DNA of 64,000 bases from Dehalococcoidales bacterium (lineage in GTDB: Bacteria > Chloroflexota > Dehalococcoidia > Dehalococcoidales > RBG-16-60-22): positions 600 to 64,599 of the forward strand of contig JBEKAC010000002.1 of the NCBI GenBank assembly GCA_050018395.1. Reading direction: 5' to 3'. Below, in pieces: positions 11,384-52,575 of this stretch (positions within the stretch are counted from its first letter, which is position 1; every line of letters begins with the position of its first letter). The translations under genes and the position numbers were made by a program. The notes below the pieces were generated by a model. The model was not told where the DNA came from. It did not search any database and was given only the letters and a program-made list of their open reading frames with translations.

Positions 11384-11432
11384 AAAATCAAATCTCAAAA
11401 CTCAAATCTCAAAAACACAAATCAAAAGCTAA
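11384..11432. repeat. Degenerate heptamer tandem repeat, 7 units (AAAATCA AATCTCA AAACTCA AATCTCA AAAACAC AAATCAA AAGCTAA)
   Basis: Read directly from the sequence. Same family as 36011..36066 and 56584..56618. Confidence 0.9.
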
Positions 11433-13853: not shown

Positions 13854-15701
13854 TTACGGCCAGAGCACCTTGGCCACGTCGTTCAAGCCAACATCCAGCA
13901 GTGCCTGCTTGCCCGGCTTGCCCGTCTGGGTGTCCCAGCCCATGGCCTCGTAGTATTCTTTAGCAAGCTCGGCGGGGTCCAGTGTGGCGCCGGCGCGGGG
14001 GCCCACCTTCTTCGGCGGGCGGCCCAGCATGCGGTCGTGGTGTTTCCAGGGTGTCTTCACGCCTTCCCGGGCGTTGAAAGCCTGCCGCATCATCTCGATG
14101 CGCCGCCCGGTCTTGAGCAGCTCTTCCTTGGTGACGTCCCAGCCGGTGATGGTGCGGAACCCTTCCAGCAGCTCGTCGAACTTGTTATACGCATCGCCGA
14201 TGACGATCATACAGACGCCGGCGGCATTATAGATGTTGGTCACGGCCACCCCGATGCTGTGAGGCACGCCTCTCCCCTTGAGCGACCCGCGGTCGTACTC
14301 CGGCAGCGAGCCGGCGGGCAGCGGACCTTCCCCGCCCATGGTGTGCCGCCCCGGCGTCGGGTTCGCCCCGTATCCGATGGCAAAGTTCAGGCCGCCGCGG
14401 GAATCATGGGCCGGGTATTCCTGCCCGCCCACGTGAATGGCATATTTCTCCGAGCCTTTGCCCACTCTCTCCGCCGCTTTCTTGACGCCATCGGCCAGGA
14501 CATCGCCGAGCCCTTCGCGCTTAGCTATCTTTTCCGTCATGGCGATGATGGCATTGGCATCGCCCCACTTCATCTCGATGCCATCCGTGTCTTTCTTCGT
14601 GATAAGGCCTTTTTCATAGCACTCCATCGCGAAAGCGACGCACGCCCCCACCGATATCGTGTCCAGCCCGTAGCGGTTGCAGATATCGTTGGCTTTAATG
14701 ATGGAAATCAGGTTATTGTTCAGCAGATTGCTGCCGAACATCGCCAGTGTTTCGTATTCCGGTTTATGGGCATGATCGTCATATTTAAACTCGCCGTCGG
14801 ACGGCTTCATGATGCCGCCGCAGCCTATCGGGCAGTGCCAGCAGCCGTATTTTCTCTGCTGCTGCTCTTTCACCGGTTGGGCGCAGATGTCCTTGTACTT
14901 GGGGAAGTCAACGACGACAACGCCGTCCCAGTTCTTGCACGGGGCGTCATCGCCCGCGCAGCTCATTTCCATCAGCGCCGCCGTGCCGAATCCGCCGATG
15001 AATTCCGAGCGCGGGTTCTTGCCGGATACCTGTCTTTTTCTCATTTCCTTGCCGGCGGCTTCATCAGCGACGGGTATCTTCATATTGCCCTTGACCGCGA
15101 TGGCCTTGAGCTTTTTCGAGCCCATCACCGCCCCCAGCCCGGAACGCCCCGCCGCCCGGCCCTTGTTATTCATGACCGCCGCGATAAGGCTCAGCTTTTC
15201 GCCGGACGGCCCGATACAGGCTACTTCCAGCTCTTTGCCGTGTTCCGCCCTTAAAATATCCTCGGTATCGAAGGTGTCTTTGCCCCAGAGTTTAGAAGCG
15301 TCCTTTATTTCCGCTTTACCGTTATCGATCAACAGATAAACCGGCTTGTCCGATTTGCCGGTGAAGAATACCGCGTCATATCCGGCGAATTTCAGATAGG
15401 GACCCACATTGCCGCCGGAGTTAGCATCGCCCCAGCCGCCGGTCAGCGGCGACTTCCCCACCATGACGTAACGTGAGCCGCCCATGGCGTCCGTTCCCGT
15501 CAGCACGCCGGTGACGAGACCCAGGATGGCGTCCGGTCCCATGGGGTCCACGCCGGCTTTTTGCCGGTTGAAGAGAATCCTGGCGCCAAGTCCGTAGCCG
15601 CCAAGGAAATCACGTCCCATCTTCTCATCGAGGGGTTCTTCTTTTATCTGCTTTTTAGTAAGATCAACCCAGAGTATCTTGCCCATAAAGCCATGCGCCA
15701 T
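13854..15701 (-). CDS. aor: Aldehyde:ferredoxin oxidoreductase (tungstopterin AOR family)
   Basis: 615 aa. N-terminus GKILWVDLTKKQI. [4Fe-4S] motif CWHCPIGC. Length and overall pattern are typical of AOR. Confidence 0.85.
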   Translation of the reverse strand: MAHGFMGKILWVDLTKKQIKEEPLDEKMGRDFLGGYGLGARILFNRQKAGVDPMGPDAILGLVTGVLTGTDAMGGSRYVMVGKSPLTGGWGDANSGGNVGPYLKFAGYDAVFFTGKSDKPVYLLIDNGKAEIKDASKLWGKDTFDTEDILRAEHGKELEVACIGPSGEKLSLIAAVMNNKGRAAGRSGLGAVMGSKKLKAIAVKGNMKIPVADEAAGKEMRKRQVSGKNPRSEFIGGFGTAALMEMSCAGDDAPCKNWDGVVVVDFPKYKDICAQPVKEQQQRKYGCWHCPIGCGGIMKPSDGEFKYDDHAHKPEYETLAMFGSNLLNNNLISIIKANDICNRYGLDTISVGACVAFAMECYEKGLITKKDTDGIEMKWGDANAIIAMTEKIAKREGLGDVLADGVKKAAERVGKGSEKYAIHVGGQEYPAHDSRGGLNFAIGYGANPTPGRHTMGGEGPLPAGSLPEYDRGSLKGRGVPHSIGVAVTNIYNAAGVCMIVIGDAYNKFDELLEGFRTITGWDVTKEELLKTGRRIEMMRQAFNAREGVKTPWKHHDRMLGRPPKKVGPRAGATLDPAELAKEYYEAMGWDTQTGKPGKQALLDVGLNDVAKVLWP

Positions 15702-18406: not shown

Positions 18407-18544
18407 CAAAGTATAACGTAATTTAGACATCATATAAATCACAATTTACAACGTTTACATGAGTTTCACATACCTAATATATTACTAAGTAACAGTAAAT
18501 TGTACCTGCCTTTTAGTCAATTATCAATGAGGGAGACCAACATC

Positions 18545-20473
18545 ATGCCGGACTTCGGTTATGCCGGACAGATACTTAAAGTAGATTTATCCAACGAAAA
18601 AGTAAGCAAACAACCCAGCGCCGAATATACGGGAAAATACATCGGCGGGCACGGCCTCGCCGCCCGGCTTTACTGGGAAATGGTGCCGCCCCAGGCTAAA
18701 GCCGCCGACCCGGAGAACTGTTTCGTCTGCGCCAGCGGCCCGCTTACCGGCTTCCCCGGGTTCGCCGGCTTTCGCTGGAAAATTTGCGCCAAGACATCAC
18801 TCAACGTCCCCGAATCATTTAATTACTGCAACCTCGGGGACAAATGGGGGGCGATTTTAAAGTACGCCGGCTATGATGCCCTGGCGGTGCAGGGCAAAGC
18901 GGATAAACCCGTCTACATTTATCTCCACAATGCCGAAGTGGAAATTAAAGACGCCTCGCACCTGCGTTGCCAGTCCACGTTCGATACGAGCGACGCCCTG
19001 AAAGCGGAATTGGGGAAAGGCGTCAGCATCCTCACCATCGGCCCCGCCGCCGAGGCCCGGATCCCTTTTTCCACCGTGCTGGCCGAGGGCGGCGCTTCCG
19101 GCTCCGGCGGTATGGGCGCGGTAATGGGGTCGAAAAATCTTAAAGCCATCGTGGTCGCCGGCAACAAAAGGCCCGTCGCCGCGCACCCGGATAAAGTCAA
19201 GGAACTGGTGGGGATAATCCAGGCCAACCTCCGGAAATCCAGCATGCTCCCGATGGCGATACCCGGCCTGACACGCCTCCATAACTGCTTCGGCTGCGGC
19301 ATCGGCTGCTACCGTGAAATTTACACCAAGGAAAGTAGGGATTATAAAGTCCTCTGCCAGGCATCCATGATGTATGGCATGCACTCCATGAAATACACCG
19401 GTAAAAACGACGGCGCACACCTGCTGGCGACGCGACTCTGCGACGGCTACGGACTGGATACATCGGTAATGCAAAGCATGATCGAGTGGCTGGAAATCTG
19501 TTATAACGAAGGTATTCTCGATGAAAAGAAAACCGGACTGCCGCTTTCAAAAATCGGCAGCTCCGAGTTTATCAGTGAGCTGACACGGATAATCACTCTG
19601 AAAGAAGGTTTTGGTGCTACTTTAGCGAAAGGCATTATCCCCGCCGCCGACGACATCGGTCCCAAAGCTAAGGCACTAATGCCCATGGTCGTCGCCACCC
19701 GCGGCAGCGAGAAAAAAGATTACGACCCGCGCATCTTAATTACCACCGCGCTCGCCTATGCTACCGAGCCCCGCCGCCCTATCCAGCAGCTCCATGAAGT
19801 CAGCATGCTGGCGATGATGTGGGTGGGCATGGGCCCGCCCGGCGCCGATATCAAGCCCGGCTCGATGTTCTCCACGGAAAACTTACGCCGGTACGCGGAA
19901 AAAAACTGGGGCAGCGCCGCCGCCGCGGACTTTTCTACCTACGATGGTAAGGCCCTGGCCGCCAAAAATATCCAGGACAATGTCTTTGCCAAGGAAAGCC
20001 TCGTGACCTGCGACCTGCGCTGGACGATGGCCCAGGTCAATTACACTTTAGGCCTTAATGGTGATACGGTCAGTCCGGCCCGGGTGTATTCCGCCATCAC
20101 CGGCAAAGAAACCGATGAAACCGAATTATCCCGCCTAGGCGAAAAAGTCTTTAATCTACAGCGGGCAATCCTCCTCCGCCAGGGCTGGCAGGGCAGAAAG
20201 GACGATACGCTCCTCGACTATTTCTTCACCACGCCGGTGCAAAAGGGCGAGCTGTTCTTTAACGCCAATGGCCTGATGCCCGGTAAAAACGGCGAAGTTA
20301 TCTCCCGTGTCGGCTGCGTGGTGGAAAAAGATAAGTTTGAAAAGATGAAGACAGAGTATTACGGCTACCGCGGCTGGGACGCCGCCACCGGCCTGCCAAA
20401 GCAATCTAAGCTTAACGAGCTTGGACTCCAGGACATCGCCGCGGACCTGGCGGGGCGGGGACTGGCTAAATAA
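18545..20473 (+). CDS. Aldehyde:ferredoxin oxidoreductase family protein (divergent paralog)
   Basis: Start trimmed to MPDFGYAGQILKVDLS. [4Fe-4S] motif CFGCGIGC. AOR-like N-terminal domain GYDALAVQGKADKPVYIY. Confidence 0.8.
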   Translation: MPDFGYAGQILKVDLSNEKVSKQPSAEYTGKYIGGHGLAARLYWEMVPPQAKAADPENCFVCASGPLTGFPGFAGFRWKICAKTSLNVPESFNYCNLGDKWGAILKYAGYDALAVQGKADKPVYIYLHNAEVEIKDASHLRCQSTFDTSDALKAELGKGVSILTIGPAAEARIPFSTVLAEGGASGSGGMGAVMGSKNLKAIVVAGNKRPVAAHPDKVKELVGIIQANLRKSSMLPMAIPGLTRLHNCFGCGIGCYREIYTKESRDYKVLCQASMMYGMHSMKYTGKNDGAHLLATRLCDGYGLDTSVMQSMIEWLEICYNEGILDEKKTGLPLSKIGSSEFISELTRIITLKEGFGATLAKGIIPAADDIGPKAKALMPMVVATRGSEKKDYDPRILITTALAYATEPRRPIQQLHEVSMLAMMWVGMGPPGADIKPGSMFSTENLRRYAEKNWGSAAAADFSTYDGKALAAKNIQDNVFAKESLVTCDLRWTMAQVNYTLGLNGDTVSPARVYSAITGKETDETELSRLGEKVFNLQRAILLRQGWQGRKDDTLLDYFFTTPVQKGELFFNANGLMPGKNGEVISRVGCVVEKDKFEKMKTEYYGYRGWDAATGLPKQSKLNELGLQDIAADLAGRGLAK

Positions 20474-33980: not shown

Positions 33981-34125
33981 CTAAAGGTGAGGGGTATTTT
34001 ATGCCTATTATTTCACCCTCAACCTGCCCTCTCCCATCGAGGGAGAGGGATGTTTATCAGATTTCCGCTGGAATTTATACTTGCACAAAGATACGGGAAG
34101 GGTTGACAACAAACTTACCCGTTTT

Positions 34126-34806
34126 TCAGGCGGCCTGCCCCACCAGTCGACCTACATCACCCTTGGCAGGCGCCGCAGGCTTTATTTTTAATCCTGCGCT
34201 TTCCGGGGAGGGTTTCACCAGCGGCTCCGGCCAGAATGTGGTGTCCAGTTGCCGGACGGACGGGGGGTGGGCGAAACGGAACCGCGCCATCAGCTCGTTG
34301 TGAGTAAGAGATATAGCCACCGGTTGCGGCATCACCGGTTCAGTCATCACTGTTTTGATTATCACCGGTTCCGGCGGTCTTTCCTCCGGTAATTTTACAG
34401 TCTCTTTGATTTCTTCAGCGGCAGTTTTCACGGGCGTGACATAGCAAATCATCCGCGTCATTTCCAGCTCATCCGGGTCGTAGCCCGGCCGGTCTCCGGC
34501 GAAGCCTTGCTGCAAGACCTCGATTTCATCCATGTCCGCGACGCGGTAGAGCTTCCACCCCTCCGTTTTCCCCATGTCGCTGAAACCCGCGGTCTGGTAG
34601 CAGATAAGCGATTCGTTTTTCGCTTCGCCTTTCATCACGATGCCCAGGCAGTAGGGCTCCACGGTGCGGTAGCCGCCGTGGTAATGAAACCCGATGGTCT
34701 TCATCTGCTTGATGGCGCCGCAGAGTACCCAGCGTTTGTATTCGCGGTTCATGCCGACATTTAGTATTTGCTTTAGTTTAGGCACGCTGCAATCTCGCCT
34801 TTCCAA
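34126..34806 (-). CDS. Hypothetical protein with WYL-like N-terminal beta-barrel pattern
   Basis: HYHGGYRTVEPYCLGIV...EGWKLYRVADMDEIEVL resembles the WYL/Sm-like pattern. The likely start is MNREYKRW at 34752. The C-terminus is Pro-rich and runs into the repeat region. Confidence 0.4.
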   Translation of the reverse strand: MERRDCSVPKLKQILNVGMNREYKRWVLCGAIKQMKTIGFHYHGGYRTVEPYCLGIVMKGEAKNESLICYQTAGFSDMGKTEGWKLYRVADMDEIEVLQQGFAGDRPGYDPDELEMTRMICYVTPVKTAAEEIKETVKLPEERPPEPVIIKTVMTEPVMPQPVAISLTHNELMARFRFAHPPSVRQLDTTFWPEPLVKPSPESAGLKIKPAAPAKGDVGRLVGQAA

Positions 34807-34928
34807 ATAGAACTCTAGGAAAACAGAAGCCTTTTGTCAAATAACAAAGCTCGCTAATAAAAAGAACAGGTGTTTCTTTTTAGAAAACGATGCAAAATAG
34901 GCACGAAAGGTAATATTATGTCAATCGT

Positions 34929-35978
34929 TTAGCGGACCCTGATCCGGCCCCTGTTTTCCGCCGTCACCTTCCCGATGATGGCGGCCGCGGAGACGCCCTG
35001 TTCGTGCAGCTTCTTCAGCAGCCGGGCAGCCCTGGCTTTGGGTACGGCGATGAGCAGGCCGCCGGAGGTCTGCGGGTCGTAGAGAATATCCTTCAAATAT
35101 TTAGGAACACTTTTATTCATGTCCACCATGTGCTTGCGGAAGTCCCGGTTGCGCCCCAGCCCACCGGCCACCATGCCCGCCTCGTAATATTCCTTCGCCT
35201 CGGGGAAAAGGGGGACGGCGGCGGCATCTATTTCCATGCCCACGGCCGTACCCTCGACCATCTCGCAGGCGTGCCCCAGCAGCCCGAAACCGGTAATGTC
35301 CTTGCAGGCGTTAACGCCCACCTCCAGCATGATTTGGGAAGCCGTGCGGTTGAGCGCGGTCATGGAGGCAGTCACCCTAGCGATGGCCTCTTTACCGGCG
35401 GCGCCTCGCTTGATGGCGGTGCTGATGATGCCGGTGCCCAGCGGTTTCGTTAAAATAAGGCTGTCTCCGGGACGGGCGGTATTATTGTGGACAACCTTGT
35501 CCGGCCGGATGGTGCCGGTGACGGCCAGCCCGTACTTTATCTCCGGGTCGTCCACGGTGTGCCCGCCCAGCAGTATCACCCCGGCCTCGTGCATTTTATC
35601 CAGGCCGCCTTTAAGGACTTTTCTCAAGATGGCAAAGTCCAGCGTATCTTTGGGGAAGCAGACGATGTTGAGCGCCGTCAGGGGCTTACCGCCCATGGCG
35701 TAAACGTCACTTAAAGCGTTGGCCACAGCGATACGGCCGAAGTCGTAAGGGTCATCGACGACGGGCGTGAAAAAATCGACTGTCTGGACGAGGGCGAGGT
35801 CGTCTGTAATTTTAAAGACGCCGGCATCCTCCGCCCTTTCCATCCCCGCGATGATATCGGGGTGGGTCTGGAAGGGCAGCCCGGCCAGCGCTTTGGCGAG
35901 GTCCGCCGGACCTATCTTACAAGCTCAACCCGCGCCGTGGACGGTCTCGGTCAACCGCAGCTTCTTTTCTTTGGACAC
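34929..35978 (-). CDS. selD: Selenide, water dikinase SelD with in-frame UGA (selenocysteine) at codon 18
   Basis: The track ORF starts at 35843, but the same frame continues upstream: GTG(35978) SKEKKLRLTETVHGAG-TGA(35927..35925)-ACKIGPADL. This aligns with E. coli SelD RLTQYSHGAGCGCKISP, placing UGA at the Cys17 position. AAGAGG lies 8 nt upstream of the GTG. Confidence 0.9.
35899..35913 (-). promoter_or_regulatory. Candidate bacterial SECIS hairpin
   Basis: AGGUCC-GGC-GGACCU, a perfect 6-bp stem beginning 11 nt after the UGA. Confidence 0.5.
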
Positions 35979-36010
35979 GTTACTTACCTCTTGAGGGTAT
36001 TGTACTATAT

Positions 36011-36066
36011 AAAATCAAAAGTCAAAAATCAAATCTCAAAAACACAAAGTGAAAACGTAAATCTTG
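36011..36066. repeat. Degenerate heptamer tandem repeat, 8 units (AAAATCA AAAGTCA AAAATCA AATCTCA AAAACAC AAAGTGA AAACGTA AATCTTG)
   Basis: Read directly. An inverted partner TGTGTTTTTGATTTTTG lies at about 36094..36110. Confidence 0.9.
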
Positions 36067-36174
36067 GTCAAAATCATTTTTCAATTTTTTATCTGTGTTT
36101 TTGATTTTTGTGCCGATTCCTTAAGATCATCCGGCATCCCGCATGCCATCGGGAAGATTTGAGATTTTATTTTT

Positions 36175-36510
36175 CTAAAGGCAAACCATCTCCGTGCTTA
36201 GCATCGTTTGGATGGACTTGGCCATATTGGTCGCCTTGCCTACTTTTATCTTACCCGTCAGCTCGAAAAAGTCCAGGCATGTGGCGCAGGCCAGGATTTC
36301 CACGCCCTGCTGCTCCAGCTTTTTCAGGTGCGCCAGCGCCCACGAGCCTTCCGCCACCAGCTTCACGCCGGTGTTCCAGAACACCAGCGCCGCCGGTTTT
36401 TCCTTGCTTTCACTCAACGTCCCTAAAAATTTGGACATCAAAAGCGTCCCGAGCTCGTCATTGCCCCTGCCCAGCGTTTCCGATTGTATCAACAACGTTT
36501 TCGATGGCAT
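36175..36510 (-). CDS. YedF-like DsrE-fold selenium-metabolism protein (lacks the TusA-like N-domain)
   Basis: Pattern SETLGRGNDELGTLLMSKF...ALVFWNTGVKL...GVEILACATCLDFF...VGKATNM matches the recalled YedF C-terminal domain. GGAGGG lies 9 nt upstream of ATG 36510. Confidence 0.7.
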   Translation of the reverse strand: MPSKTLLIQSETLGRGNDELGTLLMSKFLGTLSESKEKPAALVFWNTGVKLVAEGSWALAHLKKLEQQGVEILACATCLDFFELTGKIKVGKATNMAKSIQTMLSTEMVCL

Positions 36511-36524
36511 ATCGCGTCCCTCCA

Positions 36525-37280
36525 TCAATTTCTGATTTTACCGGATTTGGCCAATAGCGCGGCGCCCAGCGCGCCGACGGTCTGCGGCGATTCCGGAACG
36601 ATCAGTTTTTGCTCCATTTTTTGTTCCAGTAATTTAACCAGACAACGGTTATAAGCACCGCCGCCGGCGAAGATTATCTCCCCTTTGATGCCGACCCTCC
36701 TCACCATGGTCTCGATGCGCGTGGCGATAGCCTCATGCAGGGCCAGCGCAATCGTGCTGATTTCTTCCCCTTTGGCGATAAGTGAAACCACTTCCGATTC
36801 CGCGAAGACCGTGCACAGACTGTTGATGTGGATAACGCCGGAAGCGCTTAAAGCCAGGGCGCCTATTTCGGAAATCGGCACCTCCAGCGTCTGGGCCATG
36901 ATTTCCAGGAATTTGCCCGTCCCGGCGGCGCAGCGGTCGTTCATCTCGAACTTCTGGACTTCACCCTTTTCCGATAGCTGGATGACCTTGCAGTCCTGCC
37001 CCCCGATATCGATAACGTCGCGGCACCCGGGATACAGATAGCGGGCACCGACGGCAAAGGCTTTTATCTCCGAGACAACCTCCCCGCCTGCGGCGGGCGC
37101 CACCAGGTGACGGCCGTAGCCGGTCAGCACCAGCCCGGCATAGTTTTTACCCGCCAGCAGCTCCTGGCAACGCCGCAGCGGATTTACGCCCGCGGGTATG
37201 ACCACCGCATCCCGGACGGCGGTATCCAGGGTAACCAGCTTGATGGTGCGGGAGCCTACGTCCAGTCCGGCATAAATCAA
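36525..37280 (-). CDS. BcrAD/BadFG/HgdC-type ATPase (activase of 2-hydroxyacyl-CoA dehydratase-like enzymes)
   Basis: MIYAGLDVGSRTIK, DIGGQDCK, RCAAGTG (bridging-cluster Cys). Overlaps both neighbours by 1-4 nt. Confidence 0.85.
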   Translation of the reverse strand: MIYAGLDVGSRTIKLVTLDTAVRDAVVIPAGVNPLRRCQELLAGKNYAGLVLTGYGRHLVAPAAGGEVVSEIKAFAVGARYLYPGCRDVIDIGGQDCKVIQLSEKGEVQKFEMNDRCAAGTGKFLEIMAQTLEVPISEIGALALSASGVIHINSLCTVFAESEVVSLIAKGEEISTIALALHEAIATRIETMVRRVGIKGEIIFAGGGAYNRCLVKLLEQKMEQKLIVPESPQTVGALGAALLAKSGKIRN

Positions 37281-38554
37281 TGCTTCACCATCTCCAAAAA
37301 TGCTTCGATGCGGCTCTTTAGCTGCCCGGCGTCTTCGTCGCTGTAGTCCGTCTCGATGCGCAGCAGCGGAATGCCTTCTTTTTCCAGCCGCTTTTCCACC
37401 CGCACGGCCTCGGTGGCGTAGGTATGGCAGAACTGGAGGTTGTAGTGTATCACGCCGTCGGCCTTATATTCCCCGGCCAGTCTTACAATGTCATCCAGCC
37501 GGTCCTCGTTAGGCGTGAAACAGGCGCAGTGGATGTTCATATAGCGGTCGGCGATGGCTTTAATCTGTGAGTCCAGTGTTGCCGGCGATGGCTTTACGAG
37601 CTCGCTGAAGAGCCGGGTGCCGGTGCAGGACTCCTCGCAGACCACCACCGCCCCGAGCGACTCGATGATATGGTGCAGCTTCCAGTTGGGGATAGCCATG
37701 GGACTGCCGGAGACCAGGATGCGCGGGGCATCAGCCGGGGCGACGCCCTCCCCGGCGGCCACCCGCTTGTCCAGCTCGTCACAGAGGGTGTTTATCATCT
37801 GGGTATTGCGTTTGACATCGTCGTAGAAAGACACCTGGGTCACCAGCAGGGCGTCCTTGCCGCTGATGGGCACGGGGCTGGTTTTGCGTAGATTGTAAAG
37901 CCGCTGCAAAGCCTGGCGGCGGGCGTTGACGGTAGCGATAGCCTGCTTCAGATTTTCCGCCGTTATTTTGTTGCCTGTCAGCTTTTCGATAACGGCTTTA
38001 AAAGCCTTAACTTCCTCCAGCCACAGCTGCCGGCTCTTTTCCGTCTTTTTATTCGGTACTTCCATCACGTAAACCGGCTGGTACTCGTTTAAAATTTCGA
38101 ACATTTTTTTCTTGCCGTCGCAGGTAGTCTCCCCCACGATGAGGTGGCTGGCCTGCACGTAAGGGCATACCCGCCCCAGCTTAAAGCCGAACGACGACTT
38201 GATCAGCGCACAGGTGTTACGCGGCAGCACGGTTTCTGCCATCGGGATGGAAAACTGCGTCCCGGCGCATAGCCCCACCGGTATGCCGCCCGCCGCCCAG
38301 ACAAGCTCTTCCGGCACGAAAACGCAGTACGTAGCCACCACTTTGCCGCCGTTTTTGGCGTGCTCCCGTAGCTCTTTTACCCGGATGCCGTGGATATCCC
38401 CGACGACGAAGTCGTAAAACCCCATCCCCGCCGGGCGGTTTGGCTGGGAAAGATAGATTTCCTGGAACATAGGCCCCAGAGCAGTCATGAGCGCGCCGTG
38501 CGGCTTCAGGTCGATGCCCAGTTCCTGCCACATTTGTTCGTTTTCGTTAGCCAT
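37277..38554 (-). CDS. 2-hydroxyacyl-CoA dehydratase family / double-cubane-cluster-type protein
   Basis: 425 aa, single subunit. Conserved Cys positions: NTCALIKS, GRVCPYV, ETTCDGKKK, CEESCTG, HCACF, LQFCHTY. C-terminus ETDYSDEDAGQL is typical of the HgdB/BcrC superfamily. Confidence 0.75.
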   Translation of the reverse strand: MANENEQMWQELGIDLKPHGALMTALGPMFQEIYLSQPNRPAGMGFYDFVVGDIHGIRVKELREHAKNGGKVVATYCVFVPEELVWAAGGIPVGLCAGTQFSIPMAETVLPRNTCALIKSSFGFKLGRVCPYVQASHLIVGETTCDGKKKMFEILNEYQPVYVMEVPNKKTEKSRQLWLEEVKAFKAVIEKLTGNKITAENLKQAIATVNARRQALQRLYNLRKTSPVPISGKDALLVTQVSFYDDVKRNTQMINTLCDELDKRVAAGEGVAPADAPRILVSGSPMAIPNWKLHHIIESLGAVVVCEESCTGTRLFSELVKPSPATLDSQIKAIADRYMNIHCACFTPNEDRLDDIVRLAGEYKADGVIHYNLQFCHTYATEAVRVEKRLEKEGIPLLRIETDYSDEDAGQLKSRIEAFLEMVKH

Positions 38555-38619
38555 AAGTCCTTTGCTCCTTCTTGATGAATCAGCTTTGATACGTTAAAAT
38601 AACCTCGGGAGATTATAGC

Positions 38620-38657
38620 ATAAGTATTTTCTTAGCGCAATATAAGAATTACTTATA
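38620..38657. promoter_or_regulatory. Two LTTR-type T-N11-A-like dyads (ATAAG-N7-CTTAG; TATAAG-N5-CTTATA)
   Basis: Located 66-103 nt upstream of the 38554 start, within the divergent lysR intergenic region. Confidence 0.45.
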
Positions 38658-38710
38658 GAGAAGAGGGGGGAGGGAATAGGGACACTGGATTCCCGCTTCC
38701 GCGGGAATAG

Positions 38711-38754
38711 CATGAATAAAATCTCCCTCTTATCCCTCTTTATGAAAGAGGGAC
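38711..38754. repeat. About 44-nt module CATGAATAAAATCTCCCTCTTATCCCTCTTTATGAAAGAGGGAC
   Basis: Second copy at 49951..49993 in the same orientation. Confidence 0.85.
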
Positions 38755-38837
38755 GTCAATACCCCAAAATGGACAGAGGAAAAGTGTAAATGGAGATTGC
38801 CGCGACCCGATTGTATCGGGTCTCGCAATGACAACAG

Positions 38838-39740
38838 ATGAACATTGAACAACTGAACACTTTCCGGGAAATAGCCCGGCGTGGCAGCTTTTCGGAAGTC
38901 GCTAGGAAGCTGGGCATCAGCCAGCCGGCGGTCTCCTTCCAGGTGCAAAAACTGGAGCAGGAGCTCGGCATCCGCCTGATCGACCGCAGCCAGCGGGTAG
39001 TGACGCTCACCCAGGCCGGCCAGCGCCTCTTGCGCTTTGCGGAGAACGTGGCCGCGGAGCGCGAAAACCTCGCCAAAGACCTGGACGTACTGCGCGAGGA
39101 TGTTTCCGGCGACCTGCACATCGCCGCCAGCACCATCCCCGGGGAGTTCCTGTTGCCGGCGCTGCTGGCAGAGTTCAAAAAGCGCCACCCGGCCGTCGAT
39201 ATCCGGCTGGACGTGTCCGATTCGCTCACGGTCATCGGCAGAATACGCGATAATACCTGCGAAATTGGTTTCTGCGGCGTGGCGCCGGAGGGCAAAGACC
39301 TGGCATCTTTCCGGGTTGGCGGCGATGAAATCGTGCTGAGCGTCTTTCCCGGGCATCCCTTCGCCCGTAAAAAGGAAATCCCGCCGGACGAGCTGGAAGG
39401 AGAGCCGCTCATCTTCCGCGAGGCCACCTCCGGCACGCAGCGCAGCCTGGAAAACCTGTTGGCCCGCGCCGGAGTTGATACCGGCAAATGGAAGCCAAAC
39501 ATGGTGCTGGGCAGCACGCAGTCGGTAGTCTCCGCCGTCGCCACCGGGGCCGGCATCGCTTTCGTATCTGACCTGGCGATTAAAAACTGCCTGGCGCAGG
39601 GTTCGGTCATACAAGTAAATGTAAGGGGACTACACCTAACGCGTGACTTTTATTGCGTTTACCGACAGGAAAGGATCGTTTCCCGCCTGCTCGGAGGATT
39701 TGTTGATTTTATCAAGATAGCGACGGCACAACATGAATGA
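38838..39740 (+). CDS. LysR-family transcriptional regulator
   Basis: N-terminal HTH FREIARRGSFSEVARKLGISQPAVSFQVQKLE. 300 aa. Divergent from the dehydratase-like operon. Confidence 0.9.
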   Translation: MNIEQLNTFREIARRGSFSEVARKLGISQPAVSFQVQKLEQELGIRLIDRSQRVVTLTQAGQRLLRFAENVAAERENLAKDLDVLREDVSGDLHIAASTIPGEFLLPALLAEFKKRHPAVDIRLDVSDSLTVIGRIRDNTCEIGFCGVAPEGKDLASFRVGGDEIVLSVFPGHPFARKKEIPPDELEGEPLIFREATSGTQRSLENLLARAGVDTGKWKPNMVLGSTQSVVSAVATGAGIAFVSDLAIKNCLAQGSVIQVNVRGLHLTRDFYCVYRQERIVSRLLGGFVDFIKIATAQHE

Positions 39741-40485
39741 TAATAACGCCCCTGATTATTCAGCCATAAAAAGCCTGCCCCTGGAGGTCAACGGCCGCCG
39801 CGTGCTTTACCGCCAGGCGGGTAAAGGACCTCCGGTGGTGCTCATTCACGGCGGCGCCAGCGACTCGCGCGACTGGCTGGACACGATGCAGGCGCTGGCC
39901 GGCCGATTTACTTTTTACGCGCCGGACCTGCCCGGCTTCGGGCAAAGCGCCAGGGATGAGAAAGGCTATTACCTCTCGGATTTCACCGATTTTCTCGCCG
40001 GCTTTTTCGATGAGCTAAAGATACAAAACCCCGTGCTGGTGGGGCACTCTTTCGGGGCCAGGGTCTGCCTGGACATGGCGCGTCTTTACCCGGACAGGAT
40101 CGGCAGGCTCGTCCTCATCGATGCTTCCGGCCTGGGCAAAATGTCGCTGTTTGGCAGCGTCCTGTTTACCTTTTTCTGGGCGCTGCGCAAGGCATTGGGC
40201 CGGCCGCAGCCTTTTCCCCGCTTCCTCTCTAAAGAGGGGGACGACTACAACCGGGTGAGCGACGAGGTATTAAAGAGCATCAAGGTGCCCACGCTGCTGA
40301 TGTGGAAAGGCTTCGATCCTTATATGCCTTTGAAGTGTGCCCGCCGCGCGCAAAAGCTGATACCCGGCGCCAGGCTGGAAATCGTGCCCGGCTACGGCCA
40401 CGCGCCGCACCAGCAGAAAAACCACGAAGAGTTCCTGCGGATATTCACGGAATTCCTGGACGGCAATAAGGCGGGGGAAACCTAA
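39733..40485 (+). CDS. Alpha/beta-fold hydrolase
   Basis: HGGASD oxyanion region, nucleophile elbow GHSFGA, C-terminal GYGHAPH. Confidence 0.8.
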   Translation: MNDNNAPDYSAIKSLPLEVNGRRVLYRQAGKGPPVVLIHGGASDSRDWLDTMQALAGRFTFYAPDLPGFGQSARDEKGYYLSDFTDFLAGFFDELKIQNPVLVGHSFGARVCLDMARLYPDRIGRLVLIDASGLGKMSLFGSVLFTFFWALRKALGRPQPFPRFLSKEGDDYNRVSDEVLKSIKVPTLLMWKGFDPYMPLKCARRAQKLIPGARLEIVPGYGHAPHQQKNHEEFLRIFTEFLDGNKAGET

Positions 40486-41114
40486 AGCGATAAAATGACG
40501 ACCTGCGTCACCAGCGGCAGGTTGGACTTGCTGACGGTCAGTTTGGGGCGGGGCTCCGCCATGGTTACCCCCATCTCCTTGAGGAAGTTGTCCACCGGGT
40601 CCAGTTCGCGGGAGGTTTTAGGCGTTTTATAGTGCATCGGCAGGACAATCTTGGGCTCGAGTTTGCGGACCGTCTCGGCGGCCATGGCGGCATTGATGGT
40701 GGAAACGCCGCCCACCGGCACCATCAGGACGTCCACTTTCCCCAGCTCCTCCACCTGCGCCTCGGTTAAAACGTGCCCGATGTCGCCCAAGTGGCAAATC
40801 GTCACGCCGTCCACTTCCATCAAATAGACGGTGTTTTTTCCTTTGGTCTGCCCCTTGATGGAATCGTGAAAGGTGGTTATCCCCAACATTAAAACGCCGC
40901 TGATTTCATATTCGCCGGGGCCTTTGACCAGCCGGTGTACACCGTTGATGCCCTGGCTGTAGGAGTGCGAGGGGTGCGGGTGGCTGACGGTAACGATGTC
41001 CGCCGTGATTTTCCCCAGCGTATAGCCCAAGGTCGGCGGGAAAGGATCCGTAACGATGATGGCCTGACTGCCTCTTATCTTGAAACAGGAGTGACCTAAC
41101 CAGGTGATGTCCAC
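40482..41114 (-). CDS. Metallo-beta-lactamase-fold hydrolase (UPF0173-like)
   Basis: MDITWLGHSCFKI; VSHPHPSH metal motif. 210 aa. Confidence 0.8.
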   Translation of the reverse strand: MDITWLGHSCFKIRGSQAIIVTDPFPPTLGYTLGKITADIVTVSHPHPSHSYSQGINGVHRLVKGPGEYEISGVLMLGITTFHDSIKGQTKGKNTVYLMEVDGVTICHLGDIGHVLTEAQVEELGKVDVLMVPVGGVSTINAAMAAETVRKLEPKIVLPMHYKTPKTSRELDPVDNFLKEMGVTMAEPRPKLTVSKSNLPLVTQVVILSL

Positions 41115-45350: not shown

Positions 45351-46202
45351 TCATTTATTGCCTGATAATCCTCCTATGTTATAACCGATGTTGGACAATG
45401 TAACTGTTCCTCCGCCCACAGCTTTGAATTGTAGGTCAAACCAATAGGTTGTCCCTACAGTAAGATTGGGCAAATCGGATAGAATACTAAATATGCGTGC
45501 TTGGCTATTTACCTGACCTTGCATAAGTCCAAGAATCTTTGTACCCTGAAAAATACCTTGTGCATCAGCACCACTACTTGGAGCTATCCCAGTACCATAG
45601 CAAGCTTGTACCTGCCCACTTACATCCATGTGGGCTGTACCCCATATGGTTAAATGTACGCTTCCAGTGCTGGAAGGAGTAAAGGTAATAGCCAGACCAG
45701 TCATAACGAAAGAATCCGAATATGTGCTATAAGAAGTTGATGGTTGTTCAGGTGTAGATAATGGCGTGGGCGTGGGTGTGGATTGTTCTAAATTGACACT
45801 GAATATACTTTTCCACCAGTTACTATCCTTCCAAGAGGCATCCATATATACAGAATCTTCTCCTTGTTTGAAGTGAAAAGCGAGTGATGTTTCTTGTTTA
45901 ACATTTATTTGCGGTTGAGTCCAAGTAATTGTTTGTTGTTCTCTAAACTGCCCCTTTTCATAGAGTTGAACAAGGTAAGTAGTATTAGCCTTTGCATTTT
46001 GAGGTTTAAGCCACACCAATAACCCAAACATTGGCACTTTTGCGTCTATGCCTGTTACTTCTGCAATACCCCTTGTGGATATGCTAGTCTTTTGTGAATT
46101 TGTGGAGGTATCTGATGTAGATAATCCAGCGCAACTCGTAATCAAACTACCAATTATTACCAAAATCATAGATAACAACACCCAAAGTAATTTGTTGGTC
46201 AT
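45351..46202 (-). CDS. Lipoprotein of unknown function, two domains joined by a TPTPTP linker
   Basis: Start trimmed to MTNKLLWVLLSMILVIIGSLITSC (lipobox LITSC). AT-rich composition. Confidence 0.6.
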   Translation of the reverse strand: MTNKLLWVLLSMILVIIGSLITSCAGLSTSDTSTNSQKTSISTRGIAEVTGIDAKVPMFGLLVWLKPQNAKANTTYLVQLYEKGQFREQQTITWTQPQINVKQETSLAFHFKQGEDSVYMDASWKDSNWWKSIFSVNLEQSTPTPTPLSTPEQPSTSYSTYSDSFVMTGLAITFTPSSTGSVHLTIWGTAHMDVSGQVQACYGTGIAPSSGADAQGIFQGTKILGLMQGQVNSQARIFSILSDLPNLTVGTTYWFDLQFKAVGGGTVTLSNIGYNIGGLSGNK

Positions 46203-46283
46203 CTTATCCTCCCCTCGCAATTCTGTTAGGGGGATTATATACCTAATTACTCTCATAAAGCACCTTCCAAAGAGAGTAGCCAA

Positions 46284-46689: not shown

Positions 46690-47796
46690 TTAACGGTAAC
46701 CCCTGCCTTTCGGCCAGATTATTTTGCGTTCCCAGTTATCGTACCCTACATCCGTGAACATCATTTTCTCCCGCTCTTTGGGGTCGGGCACCAGCTCCGT
46801 AAGCGCTTTTTCCGTATGTTTGGGAGATTGATTCACCTCGATGAAGATGAACGGCCGGGTGACTTTCATCACGGTGGAAGGGCCGTGAGCGAAATGGGGC
46901 GGCAGGAAGCCTACTTTGGTCTTGGTGCCTAAACTCATCTCCAGCTCCGGCCCCATGCCGGCCCAGAATTCCGCCCCGAGGTCTGCCGGGTTTGCCGGGT
47001 CCGTACCGAGCAGGGCGACGACTTCCGGATGCTTATGCATATGCGGCCCGTGAGTGATATCCGGCCAGTTTTTCCAGCCGGGCACGTTCAGCGGCTGCTC
47101 GAACGCCCAGTGCGACCAGTACTCGTTAGCGCCCTCGAAAGTGTCGCCGTCGATATGCGCTATCGATTTGCCACTGCTGTCCCTCTCCCCCGGGCGGAGT
47201 CCCGACAGGATGTATTTATCATATTTCCCTGTTCTGGGGTTGCCCTTGTTCTCAACAGGTTTTTTACCTGTTTTTTCCGGCCGCCGCACTACCCTTTCGC
47301 TGCTTGCATAACCCTGGTCGATAAAAAACATGTTTTTACGGAGTCCTCCCGGCACGAGTTCCGCTAATGCCTTCTCCGTGTGCGCGGTGGACTGATTGAC
47401 GTCGAAGACGATAATCGGCTTCTTAACCTCCCGGATGACCCACCAGCCATGGACGAAATTAGCCGGTATGAAAATAAGGCAGGACCTGGTCAGCGTATAC
47501 TTTTCCTGCTCCGGGCCCAGGCACATTTCTACCGTGGCGCCAAGGTCGAGCGGGTCTTCCCGGTTGGACCCTAACAGGTAAATTACCTGGGGATATTTGT
47601 GCGTGTGCGGGCCGTAAATAACCTGGTCCCACTTTGTCCAGCCGGGCGTATTTAAAGGCTTTTCATACAGCCAGTAGCAGTTATATTCGTTGCACCCTTC
47701 AAATTTAGCGCCGTTAAGCCTCGCGATGGTTTTACCGGGACCTTCCGGCTCGCCCTTGGCGGCTCCGTAAACGGATAAATAATCGTATTTTCCCAT
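46690..47796 (-). CDS. Bicupin-like protein with internal duplication, function unknown
   Basis: Start trimmed to MGKYDYLSVYG (AAGGAGG RBS). Two homologous halves each carry GPH(T/M)HK(Y/H)P(Q/E)V...G and ...P..F(V/A)HG..., and each ends with VNQS..HTEKAL.ELVP. Confidence 0.55.
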   Translation of the reverse strand: MGKYDYLSVYGAAKGEPEGPGKTIARLNGAKFEGCNEYNCYWLYEKPLNTPGWTKWDQVIYGPHTHKYPQVIYLLGSNREDPLDLGATVEMCLGPEQEKYTLTRSCLIFIPANFVHGWWVIREVKKPIIVFDVNQSTAHTEKALAELVPGGLRKNMFFIDQGYASSERVVRRPEKTGKKPVENKGNPRTGKYDKYILSGLRPGERDSSGKSIAHIDGDTFEGANEYWSHWAFEQPLNVPGWKNWPDITHGPHMHKHPEVVALLGTDPANPADLGAEFWAGMGPELEMSLGTKTKVGFLPPHFAHGPSTVMKVTRPFIFIEVNQSPKHTEKALTELVPDPKEREKMMFTDVGYDNWERKIIWPKGRGYR

Positions 47797-47935
47797 AGTT
47801 CGGCACCTCCTTGTTGGTGTGTATTTTACTCCTGACGGGTAGCCGTAGCAATCTTTGCCTCCGGCCATCAACCGCAAGTCCCATTTGCCTCTTTTCCTCT
47901 CCAACCCCTATAATTCTAAAGTCTGGAGGCGCATT

Positions 47936-50121: not shown

Positions 50122-52575
50122 CTAGTCTTCTTTCGTCTCTTCAAAGGCGGTAATCGCCACCAGCCGGTCACCCTCGTCCAGCGTCATCACCCGCACGCCC
50201 TGGGTGCTGCGTCCCTGGGTGGTGATGCCGTGCTTCGGGTCTTCCTCTTTTACCGGCGTGCGTGTCATCATGCCTTCCGCGGAGATAAGCATCACTTGAT
50301 GGCTCTCCGCTACTACCCTGGAGGCGGTCACGTCACCCGTTTTGTCGACGATCTTGAACGTCCGCACACCGCTGCCGGACCGGTGCTGCCTGGGATACTG
50401 GTCTACCGACGTCACCTTGCCATAGCCTTTCTCCGTCACCACCAGCACATAGCCGTCCGGGATGACCCGGTCCATGCTGATAATGCCGTCGCCCAGGGCC
50501 ACCTTCATGGCGCGTACGCCGCCGGAGGTCCGCGAGGCCGCCCGCAGGCTGGCCACGTCAAAGCGGATGGACTGCCCCTTGCGCGTTACCAGTAATATAT
50601 CGTCCTTGTCTTTGGCCAGGCAGACGGAGACCAGCTCGTCGCTAGGCGCCAGGTCCATGGCGATAAGCCCGCTGCTGCGTACTGCGGTGAACTTGTCCAC
50701 CGCCGTTTTCTTGATTTCGCCCAGCTTCGTGGCCATGATCATCGAGGTGCCGGGCATCAGCCCGGTGGTGGCCACCAGCGCGGTCACCCTCTCCCCCTCG
50801 GCGATGGACAGCAGGTTAATGATGGCCAACCCCTTCGAGGTACGGGTGCTGCCGGCCGGTATTTCGTGGCATTTCAGGTAAAATACCTTGCCCTTGTTGG
50901 TAAAGAAAAAGAGGTCATCGTGCGTATCGGCCACGGTGAGTATCATCACGGCGTCCTCTTCCCGGGTGACCTGCCCGATGATGCCCTTGCCGCCGCGGTG
51001 CTGGAGCACATAATACTTTGAAGGTATCCGCTTGATGAAGCCGCGGCTGCTCAAGGTGACGACGTCTCGCTCGTGGGGGATAAGGTCTTCCTCGGTAAAG
51101 TCCAGCTTGCCCTGCTCGAGGATTTCCGTGCGCCGCTTGTCGCCGTACTTCTGCTTGAGCTCGGTCACGTCCTGTTTAATCACGGCCAGGATGCGGCGCG
51201 GGCTGGCCAGCAGGTCTTCCAGGTAGGAGATGGTCTTGATGACCTCGGCGTACTCTTCCTCGATTTTCTGTCTTTCCAGGCTGGCCAGGCGCCTTAGCTG
51301 CATATCAAGTATGGCCTGCGCCTGAAGCGTAGAAAGACTGAATTGAGTCATGAGGTTCTTGCGCGCCGCTTCAGTGGTCTCGGACTCACGGATGCATTTA
51401 ATGACAGCGTCGATGTTATCCAGCGCTATTCTTAAGCCTTCCAAAATGTGGGCGCGGGCCTTGGCCTGTTTCAATTCAAACTTGGAGCGGCGGGTAATGA
51501 CGATTTTGCGGAAATCGATGTAAGCCTGCAGCGCTTCCTTAAGGCTGATGACCTTGGGCTGGCCGTCCACCAGTGCCAGCATGTTCACGAAGAACGATGT
51601 CTGCATGGCCGTATGCTTGAAGAGGTTATTGAGCACCTTTTCCGGCTGGGCATCTCTTTTAAGCTCGATGACGATGCGCATCCCCTGCCGGTCGGACTCG
51701 TCACGCAGGTCGCCGATGCCCTCGATTCTCTTGTCTTTAACCAGGTCGGCGATGTTCTCGATCAGGGCCGCTTTGTTCGTCTGGTACGGCAGCTCGCTGA
51801 CGATAATCTGCTGCTTGCCGCCGGCGCTGATGCTGGAGATATGCGCCTTGGCCCGCACCACCACCTTGCCGTGCCCGGTAGCGTAAGCGTTCTGGATGCC
51901 CTCCCGCCCCTGGATGATGCCGGCAGTGGGGAAATCCGGCCCTTTGACCACTTTGATCAGCTCATCGATGGTCACCTGCGGAGTATCGATGAGCAAAGCA
52001 ATAGCATCGCAGATTTCATTGAGGTTGTGCGGAGGAATATTGGTGGCCATGCCTACGGCGATGCCGGCGCTGCCGTTGAGGAGGAGATTAGGGAGACGGG
52101 CGGGCAGGACCGTGGGCTCCTTGAGGCTTTCATCATAGTTAGGCATGAAGTCGACGGTCTCTTTTTCAATGTCGACCAGCATTTCTTCAGCGATTTTCGA
52201 AAGCTTGGCCTCGGTATAACGCATCGCGGCCGGAGGGTCGGCGTCGACGCTGCCGAAGTTGCCCTGGCCGAAGATGAGCGGGTAGCGCATGGAAAATTCC
52301 TGGGCCAGGCGCACCATGGCGTCGTAGATGGCGGTATCGCCGTGCGGGTGGTACTTGCCCATCACCTCGCCGACGATGAGGGCGCTTTTGCGGGTCGGCC
52401 CGCTGAAACGCAGGTTCATATCGTTCATGGCATAAAGAATGCGCCGCTGCACCGGCTTGAGCCCGTCTCTCACGTCCGGCAGCGCCCGGGCCACGATGAC
52501 GCTCATCGCATAATCGAGGTAAGAGCCCCGCATTTCGTCTTCTATATTTACAGGCTTCACTGTTCCTGTTACCAT
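50122..52575 (-). CDS. gyrA: DNA gyrase subunit A
   Basis: [34 protein letters not shown], and a C-terminal beta-pinwheel. 817 aa. Confidence 0.97.

Follow-up and report, generated by a model that had tools for sequence, protein, structure and literature searches.

Organization of the locus

We analyzed a 64,000-nucleotide stretch of the genome of a Dehalococcoidales bacterium (contig JBEKAC010000002.1; the whole stretch is referred to here as the window), in which a gene for a double-cubane cluster protein (DCCP) and selD, the gene for selenide water dikinase, belong to one co-directional series. Five genes sit at the coordinates given by the initial annotation (Table 1). Four lie on the minus strand and encode DCCP, its reductase (the activase), a YedF-like stand-alone DsrE-fold domain and SelD, and the fifth lies divergently on the plus strand and encodes a LysR-type regulator. 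Both the positions and the co-directional order of the minus-strand genes held, and only the 5′ end of selD and the start codon (ATG) of the YedF-like gene needed refinement. The unit is flanked by housekeeping genes, with kdpAB and a parA-like gene upstream and hrcA, grpE and dnaK downstream. No genes for YedE, TusA, DUF3343, SelA, SelB or NifS and no tRNA-Sec were found across the 64-kb window, and a scan of its open reading frames (ORFs) revealed no CoA-transferase or CoA-ligase gene.

Table 1. Positions of genes and sequence elements in the window
Feature	Position	Strand	Description
DCCP	37277-38554	-	425 aa; NF040772
DCCP reductase (activase)	36525-37280	-	251 aa; TTG start; TIGR00241
YedF-like stand-alone DsrE-fold domain	36175-36510	-	111 aa; TIGR03527
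A/T-rich spacer, YedF-like gene to selD	35979-36174	-	196 nt; direct and inverted repeats
selD-proximal promoter-like site	35999-36032	-	consensus scan and alignment
selD, selenide water dikinase	34929-35978	-	349 aa; GTG start; selenocysteine (Sec) at codon 18
In-frame TGA (Sec18) of selD	35925-35927	-	read-through translation, orthologue comparison
Candidate SECIS apical hairpin	35899-35913	-	AGGUCC-GGC-GGACCU
DCCP-operon promoter	38612-38640	-	-35 TTGCGC, -10 TATAAT
Predicted LysR_Se operator, two dyads	38620-38656	.	conserved in orthologous loci
lysR promoter-like site	38572-38600	+	TTGATG-17-TAAAAT
Hairpin-rich insert in lysR leader	38660-38835	.	∼175 nt; missing from closest relatives
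LysR_Se-type regulator	38838-39740	+	300 aa; NF040786
Alpha/beta hydrolase	39733-40485	+	Pfam Abhydrolase_1/6

The first two genes encode a class I double-cubane cluster protein and its ATPase

The product of the first gene scored 523 bits (cutoff, 350) against the NCBIfam family NF040772, “double-cubane-cluster-containing anaerobic reductase,” and matched Pfam PF06050 with E = 3e-131. Over residues 4–424 it matched the Protein Data Bank (PDB) entries 7YYL and 6ENO (E = 5e-156), with ∼53% identity to the Carboxydothermus hydrogenoformans enzyme. The initial annotation had left the cluster cysteines to be counted: all seven cysteines of the DCCP motif described earlier (the Dobbek motif; PMC7317905) are kept (C77, C96, C115, C145, C310, C343, and C376) and align with 7YYL. 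The counterpart of C96 is the cysteine that lies beside the cluster without being a ligand, and the six others are the cluster ligands of the motif. C130 is a further invariant cysteine beyond this motif, and together with the motif cysteines it is invariant in 90/90 DCCP relatives. We also considered DCCP as a hidden selenoprotein and rejected this possibility, because the 90 sequences have no in-frame TGA at any of the cysteine positions.

The N-terminal extension of the crystallized protein is retained as well; the alignment is gap-free, pairing residue 4 with residue 3 of 7YYL, and 76 residues precede the first motif cysteine. In the published structure, it is this extension that shuts the CoA channel, leaving only two narrow channels. 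Because the seven cysteines and the extension are both kept, the window protein is placed in class I of Dobbek cluster IV, the small-molecule type, as opposed to the YjiM-like class II, and is not regarded as an acyl-CoA dehydratase; an [8Fe-9S] cluster and reduction activity are predicted for it.

It could be argued that the gene encodes an ordinary 2-hydroxyacyl-CoA dehydratase or aryl-CoA reductase that adjoins selD by an accident of local synteny. Dehydratases and benzoyl-CoA reductases belong to the same Pfam families, PF06050 and BcrAD_BadFG, older database names read “dehydratase,” and these enzymes share with the window pair the fold superfamily and the injection of low-potential electrons by an archerase. 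However, the 2-hydroxyacyl-CoA dehydratases and class I benzoyl-CoA reductases are heteromeric, carry one [4Fe-4S] cluster per subunit, have a wide CoA channel and are encoded next to CoA-transferase or CoA-ligase genes, whereas the operon has a single HGD-D gene with no paralogous partner subunit, and its product has the seven-cysteine motif and the channel-blocking extension. Scores of the window protein against the families of these enzymes were far below the cutoffs (HadC, NF052456, 118 versus 700; BzdN, 136 versus 454; BcrC, 71 versus 421), and it groups with the crystallized DCCP rather than with HadBC or benzoyl-CoA reductase. The earlier description as a single-subunit protein that is not an acyl-CoA dehydratase was thus borne out, and an ordinary dehydratase at this locus appears highly improbable.

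The reductase gene overlaps the DCCP stop codon by 4 nt. Its product scored 222 bits (cutoff, 125) against TIGR00241, the BcrAD/BadFG/HgdC family of archerase ATPases, and matched PDB 4EHT (1e-51) and 7YYL_E (6e-43). Both sequence contexts of the [4Fe-4S] cysteines, NDRCAAGTG and SLCTVFAESE, were found and match 4EHT and 7YYL_E; with the roles of the two archerase cluster cysteines taken from PMC9351452, the reductase is predicted to carry the inter-subunit [4Fe-4S] cluster. Without the ATPase, neither dithionite nor Ti(III) citrate reduces the double cubane (PMC9351452).

The pair resembles DCCP and DCCP-R of C. hydrogenoformans (CHY_0487/CHY_0488; 6ENO, 7YYL), the sole characterized member and an ATP-dependent enzyme that reduces small molecules, in the seven-cysteine motif, the N-terminal extension and the adjacent archerase, and from this likeness ATP-driven reduction of an [8Fe-9S] cluster and small-molecule chemistry are expected of it. 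The window pair differs in its surroundings, being part of an operon under a LysR_Se-type regulator that also encodes the YedF DsrE domain and SelD, and a function cannot be transferred to it from the C. hydrogenoformans protein.

A stand-alone DsrE-fold domain and a selenocysteine-containing SelD follow the pair

The ATG of the YedF-like gene lies 14 nt past the activase stop codon. The 111-residue protein scored 129 bits (cutoff, 110) against TIGR03527, and the match spans only positions 86–191 of the 194 in the profile. The TusA domain is therefore absent, as the initial annotation had said; the ...RGLxCPxPV... segment of full-length relatives is missing, the protein has no NF008242 or TusA match, and no TusA-like ORF occurs anywhere in the window. 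The Pfam DsrE match alone is below threshold (20.9 versus 22.7). The AlphaFold2 model (predicted local distance difference test, 89) matched YchN, MTH1491, TusBCD and DsrEFH in a Foldseek search (TM score, 0.65–0.72; E = 2e-5 to 4e-4), and by this comparison of models the DsrE fold of the protein is confirmed. The sequence C75-A-T-C78 (motif C75-x-T-C78-L) is conserved across the short and long forms, and the protein also has a C-terminal Cys110. YedF of the Escherichia coli type (NF008242, 77 aa) consists of the TusA-like half only and shares no region with the window protein, which is therefore the complementary half. This short form is common, with at least 120 distinct 111-residue clusters of relatives that are named “selenium metabolism protein YedF” by NCBI and JGI.

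In the ORF list used for the initial annotation, selD covered only 34929–35843; read-through of the TGA extends it to the GTG at 35978 and yields the full-length protein. The glycine-rich loop reads HGAG-U-ACKIGP, the score against TIGR00476 is 358 bits, and the TGA is kept at the same codon in 40/41 SelD genes of related loci, all of which upholds the initial reading of a selenocysteine-containing SelD. A hairpin (AGGUCC-GGC-GGACCU) starts 11 nt past the UGA, and its position was paired in 79.5% of cells as compared with at most 55% in slid controls, with no covariation. Because folding of the single selD sequence past the UGA yielded z = +0.8 and no consensus structure came out of RNAalifold, this hairpin stays a candidate for the apical part of a selenocysteine insertion sequence (SECIS). 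An Rfam scan of positions 34000–40000 at E ≤ 1 found nothing; thus this region contains no known riboswitch or SECIS model.

The spacer between the YedF-like gene and selD is filled with repeats, as had been noted: three A/T-rich direct repeats spaced by 14 nt and 11 inverted pairs. These repeats are missing or different in five related loci (L001, L004, L084, L098, and L111; related loci are numbered with the prefix L). An operator array was considered for them and rejected for this lack of conservation in relatives, and we read them as lineage-specific. In a consensus scan, a promoter-like TTGATT-17-TATAGT overlaps the conserved TAGTACAAT and is followed by the Shine-Dalgarno sequence AAGAGG. 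The TAGTA(A/C)AAT..AAGAGG combination (−10-like element and Shine-Dalgarno sequence) before selD is invariant in 6/6 aligned loci and is the sole conserved part of the spacer. No terminator-like site was found between the YedF-like gene and selD. The selD gene probably has its own promoter besides being reached by read-through.

The association of DCCP with selenium genes is conserved across phyla

The DCCP protein was scanned against one genome per GTDB species, and the 80 closest loci were taken, from Dehalococcoidia, Bacillota, Desulfobacterota, Synergistota and Leptospirales. Every ORF up to 8 kb to either side of DCCP entered an unbiased clustering, and the clusters were then annotated. 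Among the 80 loci, the neighbors were the activase (68), YedF (19), SelD (17), SelB (9), YedE (8), TusA-like proteins (8), the short and long forms of DUF3343 (8 and 7), NifS-like proteins (7), LysR of the window's cluster (7) and HesB-like proteins (6). SelD, YedF, YedE or SelB lay within 8 kb in 31/80 loci. A count of any selenium-related family, including NifS, HesB, TusA and DUF3343, reached 47/80; we relied on the strict count, since the latter four families may serve sulfur metabolism or Fe-S assembly. In 21 loci the strict genes form a co-directional chain with DCCP (gaps of ≤450 nt), a number that rises to 31 when the carrier, NifS and HesB families are added. At least eight gene orders were seen in the selenium-linked loci, which are scattered over the whole neighbor-joining tree of DCCP, including a second paralogue clade.

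SelD within 8 kb in 17/80 species corresponds to a binomial P of ∼6e-18 at a background of 1%, and the expectation for a single-copy gene and 16 kb is ∼0.4%. The adjacency of DCCP and SelD thus exceeds chance. Conservation of the gene neighborhood, which the initial annotation had made the touchstone of its proposal, was found in at least three phyla, and neither a CoA-transferase nor a CoA-ligase is among the annotated recurrent neighbor families of the 80 loci. The adjacency is not a peculiarity of one genome, and DCCP does not cluster with acyl-CoA dehydratases. With a selenium linkage that recurs in varied gene orders (P < 1e-17), the reading as an ordinary dehydratase is effectively refuted.

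Several further gene families recur around DCCP. In Firmicutes, the gene for the DUF3343 “Se/S carrier” lies directly after DCCP or between DCCP and the reductase, and many loci of this group (L014, L018, L020, L022, L024, L026, L044, and others) have the order DCCP-activase-DCCP-DUF3343 with paralogues of different clades; such side-by-side paralogues hint at a heteromeric enzyme or at two substrates. A family of ∼168 residues with no Pfam or NCBIfam match (cluster c6; e.g. L064:5979-6488) occurs in 18/80 loci, mostly of Desulfobacterota, directly after the DCCP reductase and before SelD, YedF or YedE, and is a candidate for a further component of the system. Seven loci (L016, L043, L045, L055, L057, L064, and L067) carry by DCCP a four-gene cassette of YedE, TusA, the long DUF3343 (184 aa) and a Carb_kinase-like protein (PF01256); the last two occur with SelD, and without DCCP, in a LysR-divergent operon at L150:5473-6884. 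A gene for an AP_endonuc_2/xylose-isomerase-like TIM barrel lies between DCCP and the reductase or after YedF in L031, L034, L043, L051 and L066, and at L127:2840-3724 it heads a LysR-divergent operon that also encodes an ABC importer.

The divergent regulator and its operator

The LysR protein scored 263 bits against NF040786, “selenium metabolism-associated LysR” (cutoff, 250). With a margin of just 13 bits for the window protein, the boundary of this family is narrow. The LysR_Se subfamily includes the archaeal regulator HrsM (Lin et al. 2015, PMC5322559). Orthologues that are 54–75% identical are encoded divergently to YedE, YedF, DCCP or SelD operons.

The intergenic region between lysR and DCCP measures 283 nt. 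The two T-N11-A-type dyads seen there by the initial annotation are real: they read ATAAGTATTT / AATTACTTAT, enclose TCTTA-N8-TAAGA and are conserved in orthologous loci. The dyads TAAG-N5-CTTA (T-N11-A) and TAAG-N6-CTTA flank the −35 box of the minus-strand DCCP promoter, which consists of TTGCGC (38640..38635), a 17-nt spacer and a perfect −10 box TATAAT (38617..38612). The sequence cTTGCAc-N17-TATAAT is kept in most related loci irrespective of the first gene, and the whole block ATAAGnAnnnnTTAT-cTTGCAc-TAAGAnAnnACTTAT-G-nTATAAT is conserved in Dehalococcoidia relatives with a LysR of 54–75% identity. A strict regular expression for the operator matched 25/71 upstream regions; by eye, near-matches can be seen in the majority of the remaining regions whose neighbor was identified as a selenium gene.

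A second promoter-like site, TTGATG-17-TA(A/G)AAT, reads toward lysR back-to-back with the DCCP promoter, and the element CTTGATGAT..ATGGCATA(G/A)AAT is conserved beside LysR in related loci. Since the promoters stand back-to-back, the operator precedes the start site of DCCP and follows that of lysR. LysR-type regulators classically have such a divergent arrangement, from which activation of the target and autorepression are predicted. The sequence TATTTTATGGCAT…AATCATCAAG downstream of the DCCP −10 box was considered as an RNA leader motif; this was rejected because the sequence, when read in the opposite direction, forms the lysR promoter TTGATG-17-TA(A/G)AAT and is also kept beside LysR relatives that face transketolase. 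These relatives (L151, L152, L154, L156, and L161; 46–55% identity) lack the selenium operator and probably belong to a different subfamily.

Between the operator and the lysR start, the window has a hairpin-rich insert that is missing from L001 and L004. Its arm ATTGCGAGACCC…GGGTCGCGGCAATCT (38794–38829), present in a single copy in the window, is similar to an insert in the corresponding position of L085.

DCCP and its reductase are an optional module of LysR_Se-linked operons

For a reciprocal view, metagenome contigs were scanned with the LysR protein alignment, yielding 80 loci (46–75% identity), 71 of which had readable upstream sequence. In these 71 loci the divergent neighbor was YedE (26), YedF (15), DCCP (7), TusA (2) or SelD (1), and in 20 it was unidentified. 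The operons form a series: LysR<>YedF-SelD; LysR<>YedE…YedF-SelD; LysR<>DCCP-activase-YedF-SelD (the window, L001, L004, and L111); and LysR<>DCCP-activase-SelD (L006, L008, and L117). One locus, L121, combines YedE with DCCP-activase-YedF-SelD. The same operator-promoter stands ahead of all operon types of the series. Because this element is shared and the slot is otherwise taken by YedE, the DCCP-reductase pair is an optional module upstream of YedF-SelD.

YedE, which occupies the same upstream slot, is a putative selenium importer; according to work on Methanococcus maripaludis, no selenium-specific transporter is known in any organism (PMC11097638). Compared with the known LysR_Se/YedE/YedF/SelD clusters (NF040786, TIGR04112, TIGR03527; Lin et al. 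2015), the window has the same regulator subfamily and YedF-SelD core, and such clusters in related Chloroflexota loci have the same divergent operator-promoter layout. It differs from the YedE-type clusters in that DCCP and its reductase stand in the place of YedE and YedF is cut to its DsrE half.

Downstream of lysR, and overlapping its stop codon by 8 nt, lies a gene for an alpha/beta hydrolase. This gene follows the LysR orthologue in 26/80 metagenome loci regardless of the content of the divergent operon, and in 18 loci it is accompanied by a convergent gene for a metallo-beta-lactamase-fold hydrolase (40482–41114, minus strand, in the window). The association may be mere lineage synteny or a functional link, and membership of the hydrolase in the selenium system is uncertain.

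Other features of the window

Two genes of the tungsten-containing aldehyde:ferredoxin oxidoreductase family lie at 13854–15701 (minus strand) and 18500–20473 (plus strand), and the region flanked by them includes a low-GC stretch (12–14 kb; GC, 0.39) adjoining a DNA methylase gene (11429–12379). Four sizeable ORFs have no Pfam match at E ≤ 1e-5 (4743–8099, plus; 45351–46283, minus; 46690–47904, minus; 34126–34806, minus); they include a protein of 1118 residues and an ORF of 226 residues directly downstream of selD. The window also contains dnaA (59769–61121, plus) and gyrA (50122–52575, minus), and the selenium operon therefore lies ∼20–25 kb from the probable chromosomal origin region.

A possible role of the operon in the supply of selenide

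The initial annotation knew of no described link between such a pair and selenium, which proved to be wrong. Haft and Gwadz built NF040772 and found 955/970 high-scoring members in SelD-positive assemblies, proposing that the protein processes a selenium compound or carries a selenium-bridged cofactor; the text of their preprint mentions neither YedF nor LysR (bioRxiv 10.1101/2022.07.06.499078). Lin et al. had earlier defined LysR_Se, YedE, YedF and DUF3343 as selenium candidates, and in Table 1 of that paper the top STRING partners given for all four include the dehydratase-like subunit and the activase, with “2-hydroxyglutaryl-CoA dehydratase subunit” as the top partner of LysR_Se, entries that the text leaves undiscussed (PMC5322559). 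Kountz and Balskus described DCCP as “provisionally linked to selenium metabolism” and drew DCCP and DCCPR among “putative selenium metabolism” genes (PMC10418091). The structural papers on DCCP give its physiological function as unknown and do not mention selenium (PMC7317905, PMC9351452), and a full-text literature search on double-cubane, 8Fe-9S and related terms yielded no paper that assigns a function to DCCP. Every gene of the locus is captured by an existing curated family, and the association of DCCP with selenium is thus already published; those texts do not contain the modular build of the operons, the operator that these share or a stand-alone DsrE form in direct coupling with DCCP.

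We suggest, at somewhat less than even likelihood, that the unit is a selenium-supply operon in which Se(0)-level selenium would be reduced to selenide for SelD at the expense of ATP. A further and slightly more tentative proposal is that DCCP and its reductase are the missing selenide-generating, nitrogenase-like reductase of strict anaerobes, with the DsrE protein as the carrier to SelD and LysR as the sensor of selenium. Under the supply model, LysR_Se would bind the two dyads flanking the −35 box and control DCCP, the DCCP reductase, the YedF DsrE domain and, by read-through, selD, and would repress its own promoter, as its start site lies upstream of the operator. The reductase dimer would accept an electron from ferredoxin or flavodoxin, and hydrolysis of ATP would drive it onto the [8Fe-9S] double cubane of DCCP. 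The cluster would be reached only via the narrow channels, with the conserved free C96 next to it, and DCCP would there reduce elemental selenium, polyselenide or a carrier-bound perselenide, the candidates for Se(0)-level selenium, to selenide. The CxxC protein of the DsrE fold would hand selenium to the Sec-containing SelD, which would then make selenophosphate.

The YedE-or-DCCP slot, the carrier genes at DCCP in Firmicutes, the narrow channels with a free cysteine and the thermodynamics make this supply role plausible. The standard potential of the Se/H2Se couple is −0.399 V, with a pKa of 3.89. From these constants, the potential of Se(0)/HSe− at pH 7 was calculated as ∼−0.72 V at 1 M and ∼−0.54 V at 1 μM selenide. 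This is below ferredoxin, and the step would therefore be the sole one in selenium assimilation to justify ATP-coupled electrons. The turnover of DCCP with acetylene is slow, ∼4 per minute, which is compatible with the flux of a trace element. By analogy, the role fits with findings in M. maripaludis, where selenium starvation induces yedE together with PstS-type binding proteins and the switch between isogenes that depends on selenium is under the control of HrsM (PMC11097638). The window LysR may likewise respond to selenium status, possibly with selenophosphate as the effector. The genome-level co-occurrence of DCCP with SelD is independent support for the supply role.

The end served would be that of other routes of selenide delivery to SelD. 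Thiol-dependent routes (glutathione or thioredoxin) and CsdB/NifS-like selenocysteine lyases likewise provide Se(−II) without free toxic selenide; they run on thiols or pyridoxal phosphate chemistry, not on an ATP-driven Fe-S reductase.

Several points weigh against a supply role. Such a role is inferred for any DCCP. In 49/80 loci, none of the strict selenium genes lies near DCCP; in Desulfosporosinus youngiae the DCCP-reductase pair stands alone, and at the C. islandicus locus, whose DCCP is 96% identical to the crystallized protein, glycine-cleavage genes follow (the contig ends 320 nt upstream). In many genomes DCCP has two or more paralogues, some of them adjacent to one another (as seen here and by Haft and Gwadz), which is more than the supply of a trace element would need. 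Adjacency alone gives no direction, because clients of SelD, such as selenoprotein genes and Se-dependent molybdenum hydroxylases, cluster with selD too. The DsrE, DUF3343, TusA, NifS and HesB neighbors could serve sulfur or Fe-S assembly instead, the narrow channels argue against a protein-bound substrate, and reduction of a perselenide may not need so low a potential. The initial proposal that the pair reduces or mobilizes selenium for SelD is thus plausible, and the modular layout of the operons has strengthened it; it still goes beyond what is observed, and the reverse direction, with SelD serving DCCP, is possible.

The chief rival explanation takes up this reverse direction. On this view, which we regard as unlikely, DCCP would be a client of SelD and would require selenium in vivo, in its double cubane or elsewhere; a mu2-Se bridge might, for instance, replace the ninth sulfide. 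SelD, the YedF DsrE domain, DUF3343, NifS and HesB would then be maturation factors and DCCP would represent a fourth selenium-utilization trait. Haft and Gwadz raised a selenium-containing cofactor as a formal possibility from the occurrence of DCCP in SelD-positive assemblies. Known selenium-dependent enzymes typically adjoin selD, selA or selB, and the presence of SelB, NifS-like and HesB-like genes in 9, 7 and 6 of the 80 DCCP loci is as expected for cofactor assembly; moreover, the seven motif cysteines and the one further invariant cysteine leave a free thiol beside the bridge. However, recombinant C. hydrogenoformans DCCP produced in E. coli was reported to contain [8Fe-9S] and to be active, no maturase-like gene specific to DCCP consistently accompanies it, and none of the 90 DCCP sequences is itself a selenoprotein. 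The alternation of YedE and DCCP upstream of YedF-SelD also fits supply better.

Alternatively, DCCP may act on another small compound containing selenium, sulfur or a metal, or may merely be co-regulated by selenium, with no direct feeding of SelD; this too we consider improbable. Organoselenium or organometallic intermediates, as in the selenocysteine-assisted organometallic (SAO) model, selenium detoxification and methylselenide salvage would be examples. DCCP paralogues are enriched beside the SAO selenoprotein ABC system, at 2.2 per genome (Haft and Gwadz), and DCCP occurs within type I mlp clusters, which are proposed for methylselenide metabolism (PMC10418091). Recurrent neighbors of DCCP include ABC importers, of the PstS type and others, as well as TIM-barrel and HdrD/MvhD genes, and the LysR_Se homologue HrsM regulates selenium-free isoenzymes in Methanococcus. 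The SAO locus resembles the window in that DCCP and its reductase adjoin selenium-related genes and depend on SelD at the genome level, but SAO, mlp and transporter genes are absent from the window. Conserved partners in the operon, here and in related loci, are limited to the YedF domain and SelD, next to the selenium regulator, and the operator is common to plain YedF-SelD and YedE-YedF-SelD operons, which argues against these alternatives.

The operon joins two questions, namely the physiological role of DCCP and the source of selenide for SelD in strict anaerobes that lack glutathione. The linkage across phyla, the YedE-or-DCCP slot and the shared operator sharpen the published co-occurrence into an enzyme role that is directly testable. 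If the operon supplies selenide, this would be the first physiological function for the orphan [8Fe-9S] family and would fill a gap upstream of selenophosphate synthesis; if DCCP instead requires selenium in its cofactor, it would represent a new selenium-utilization trait.

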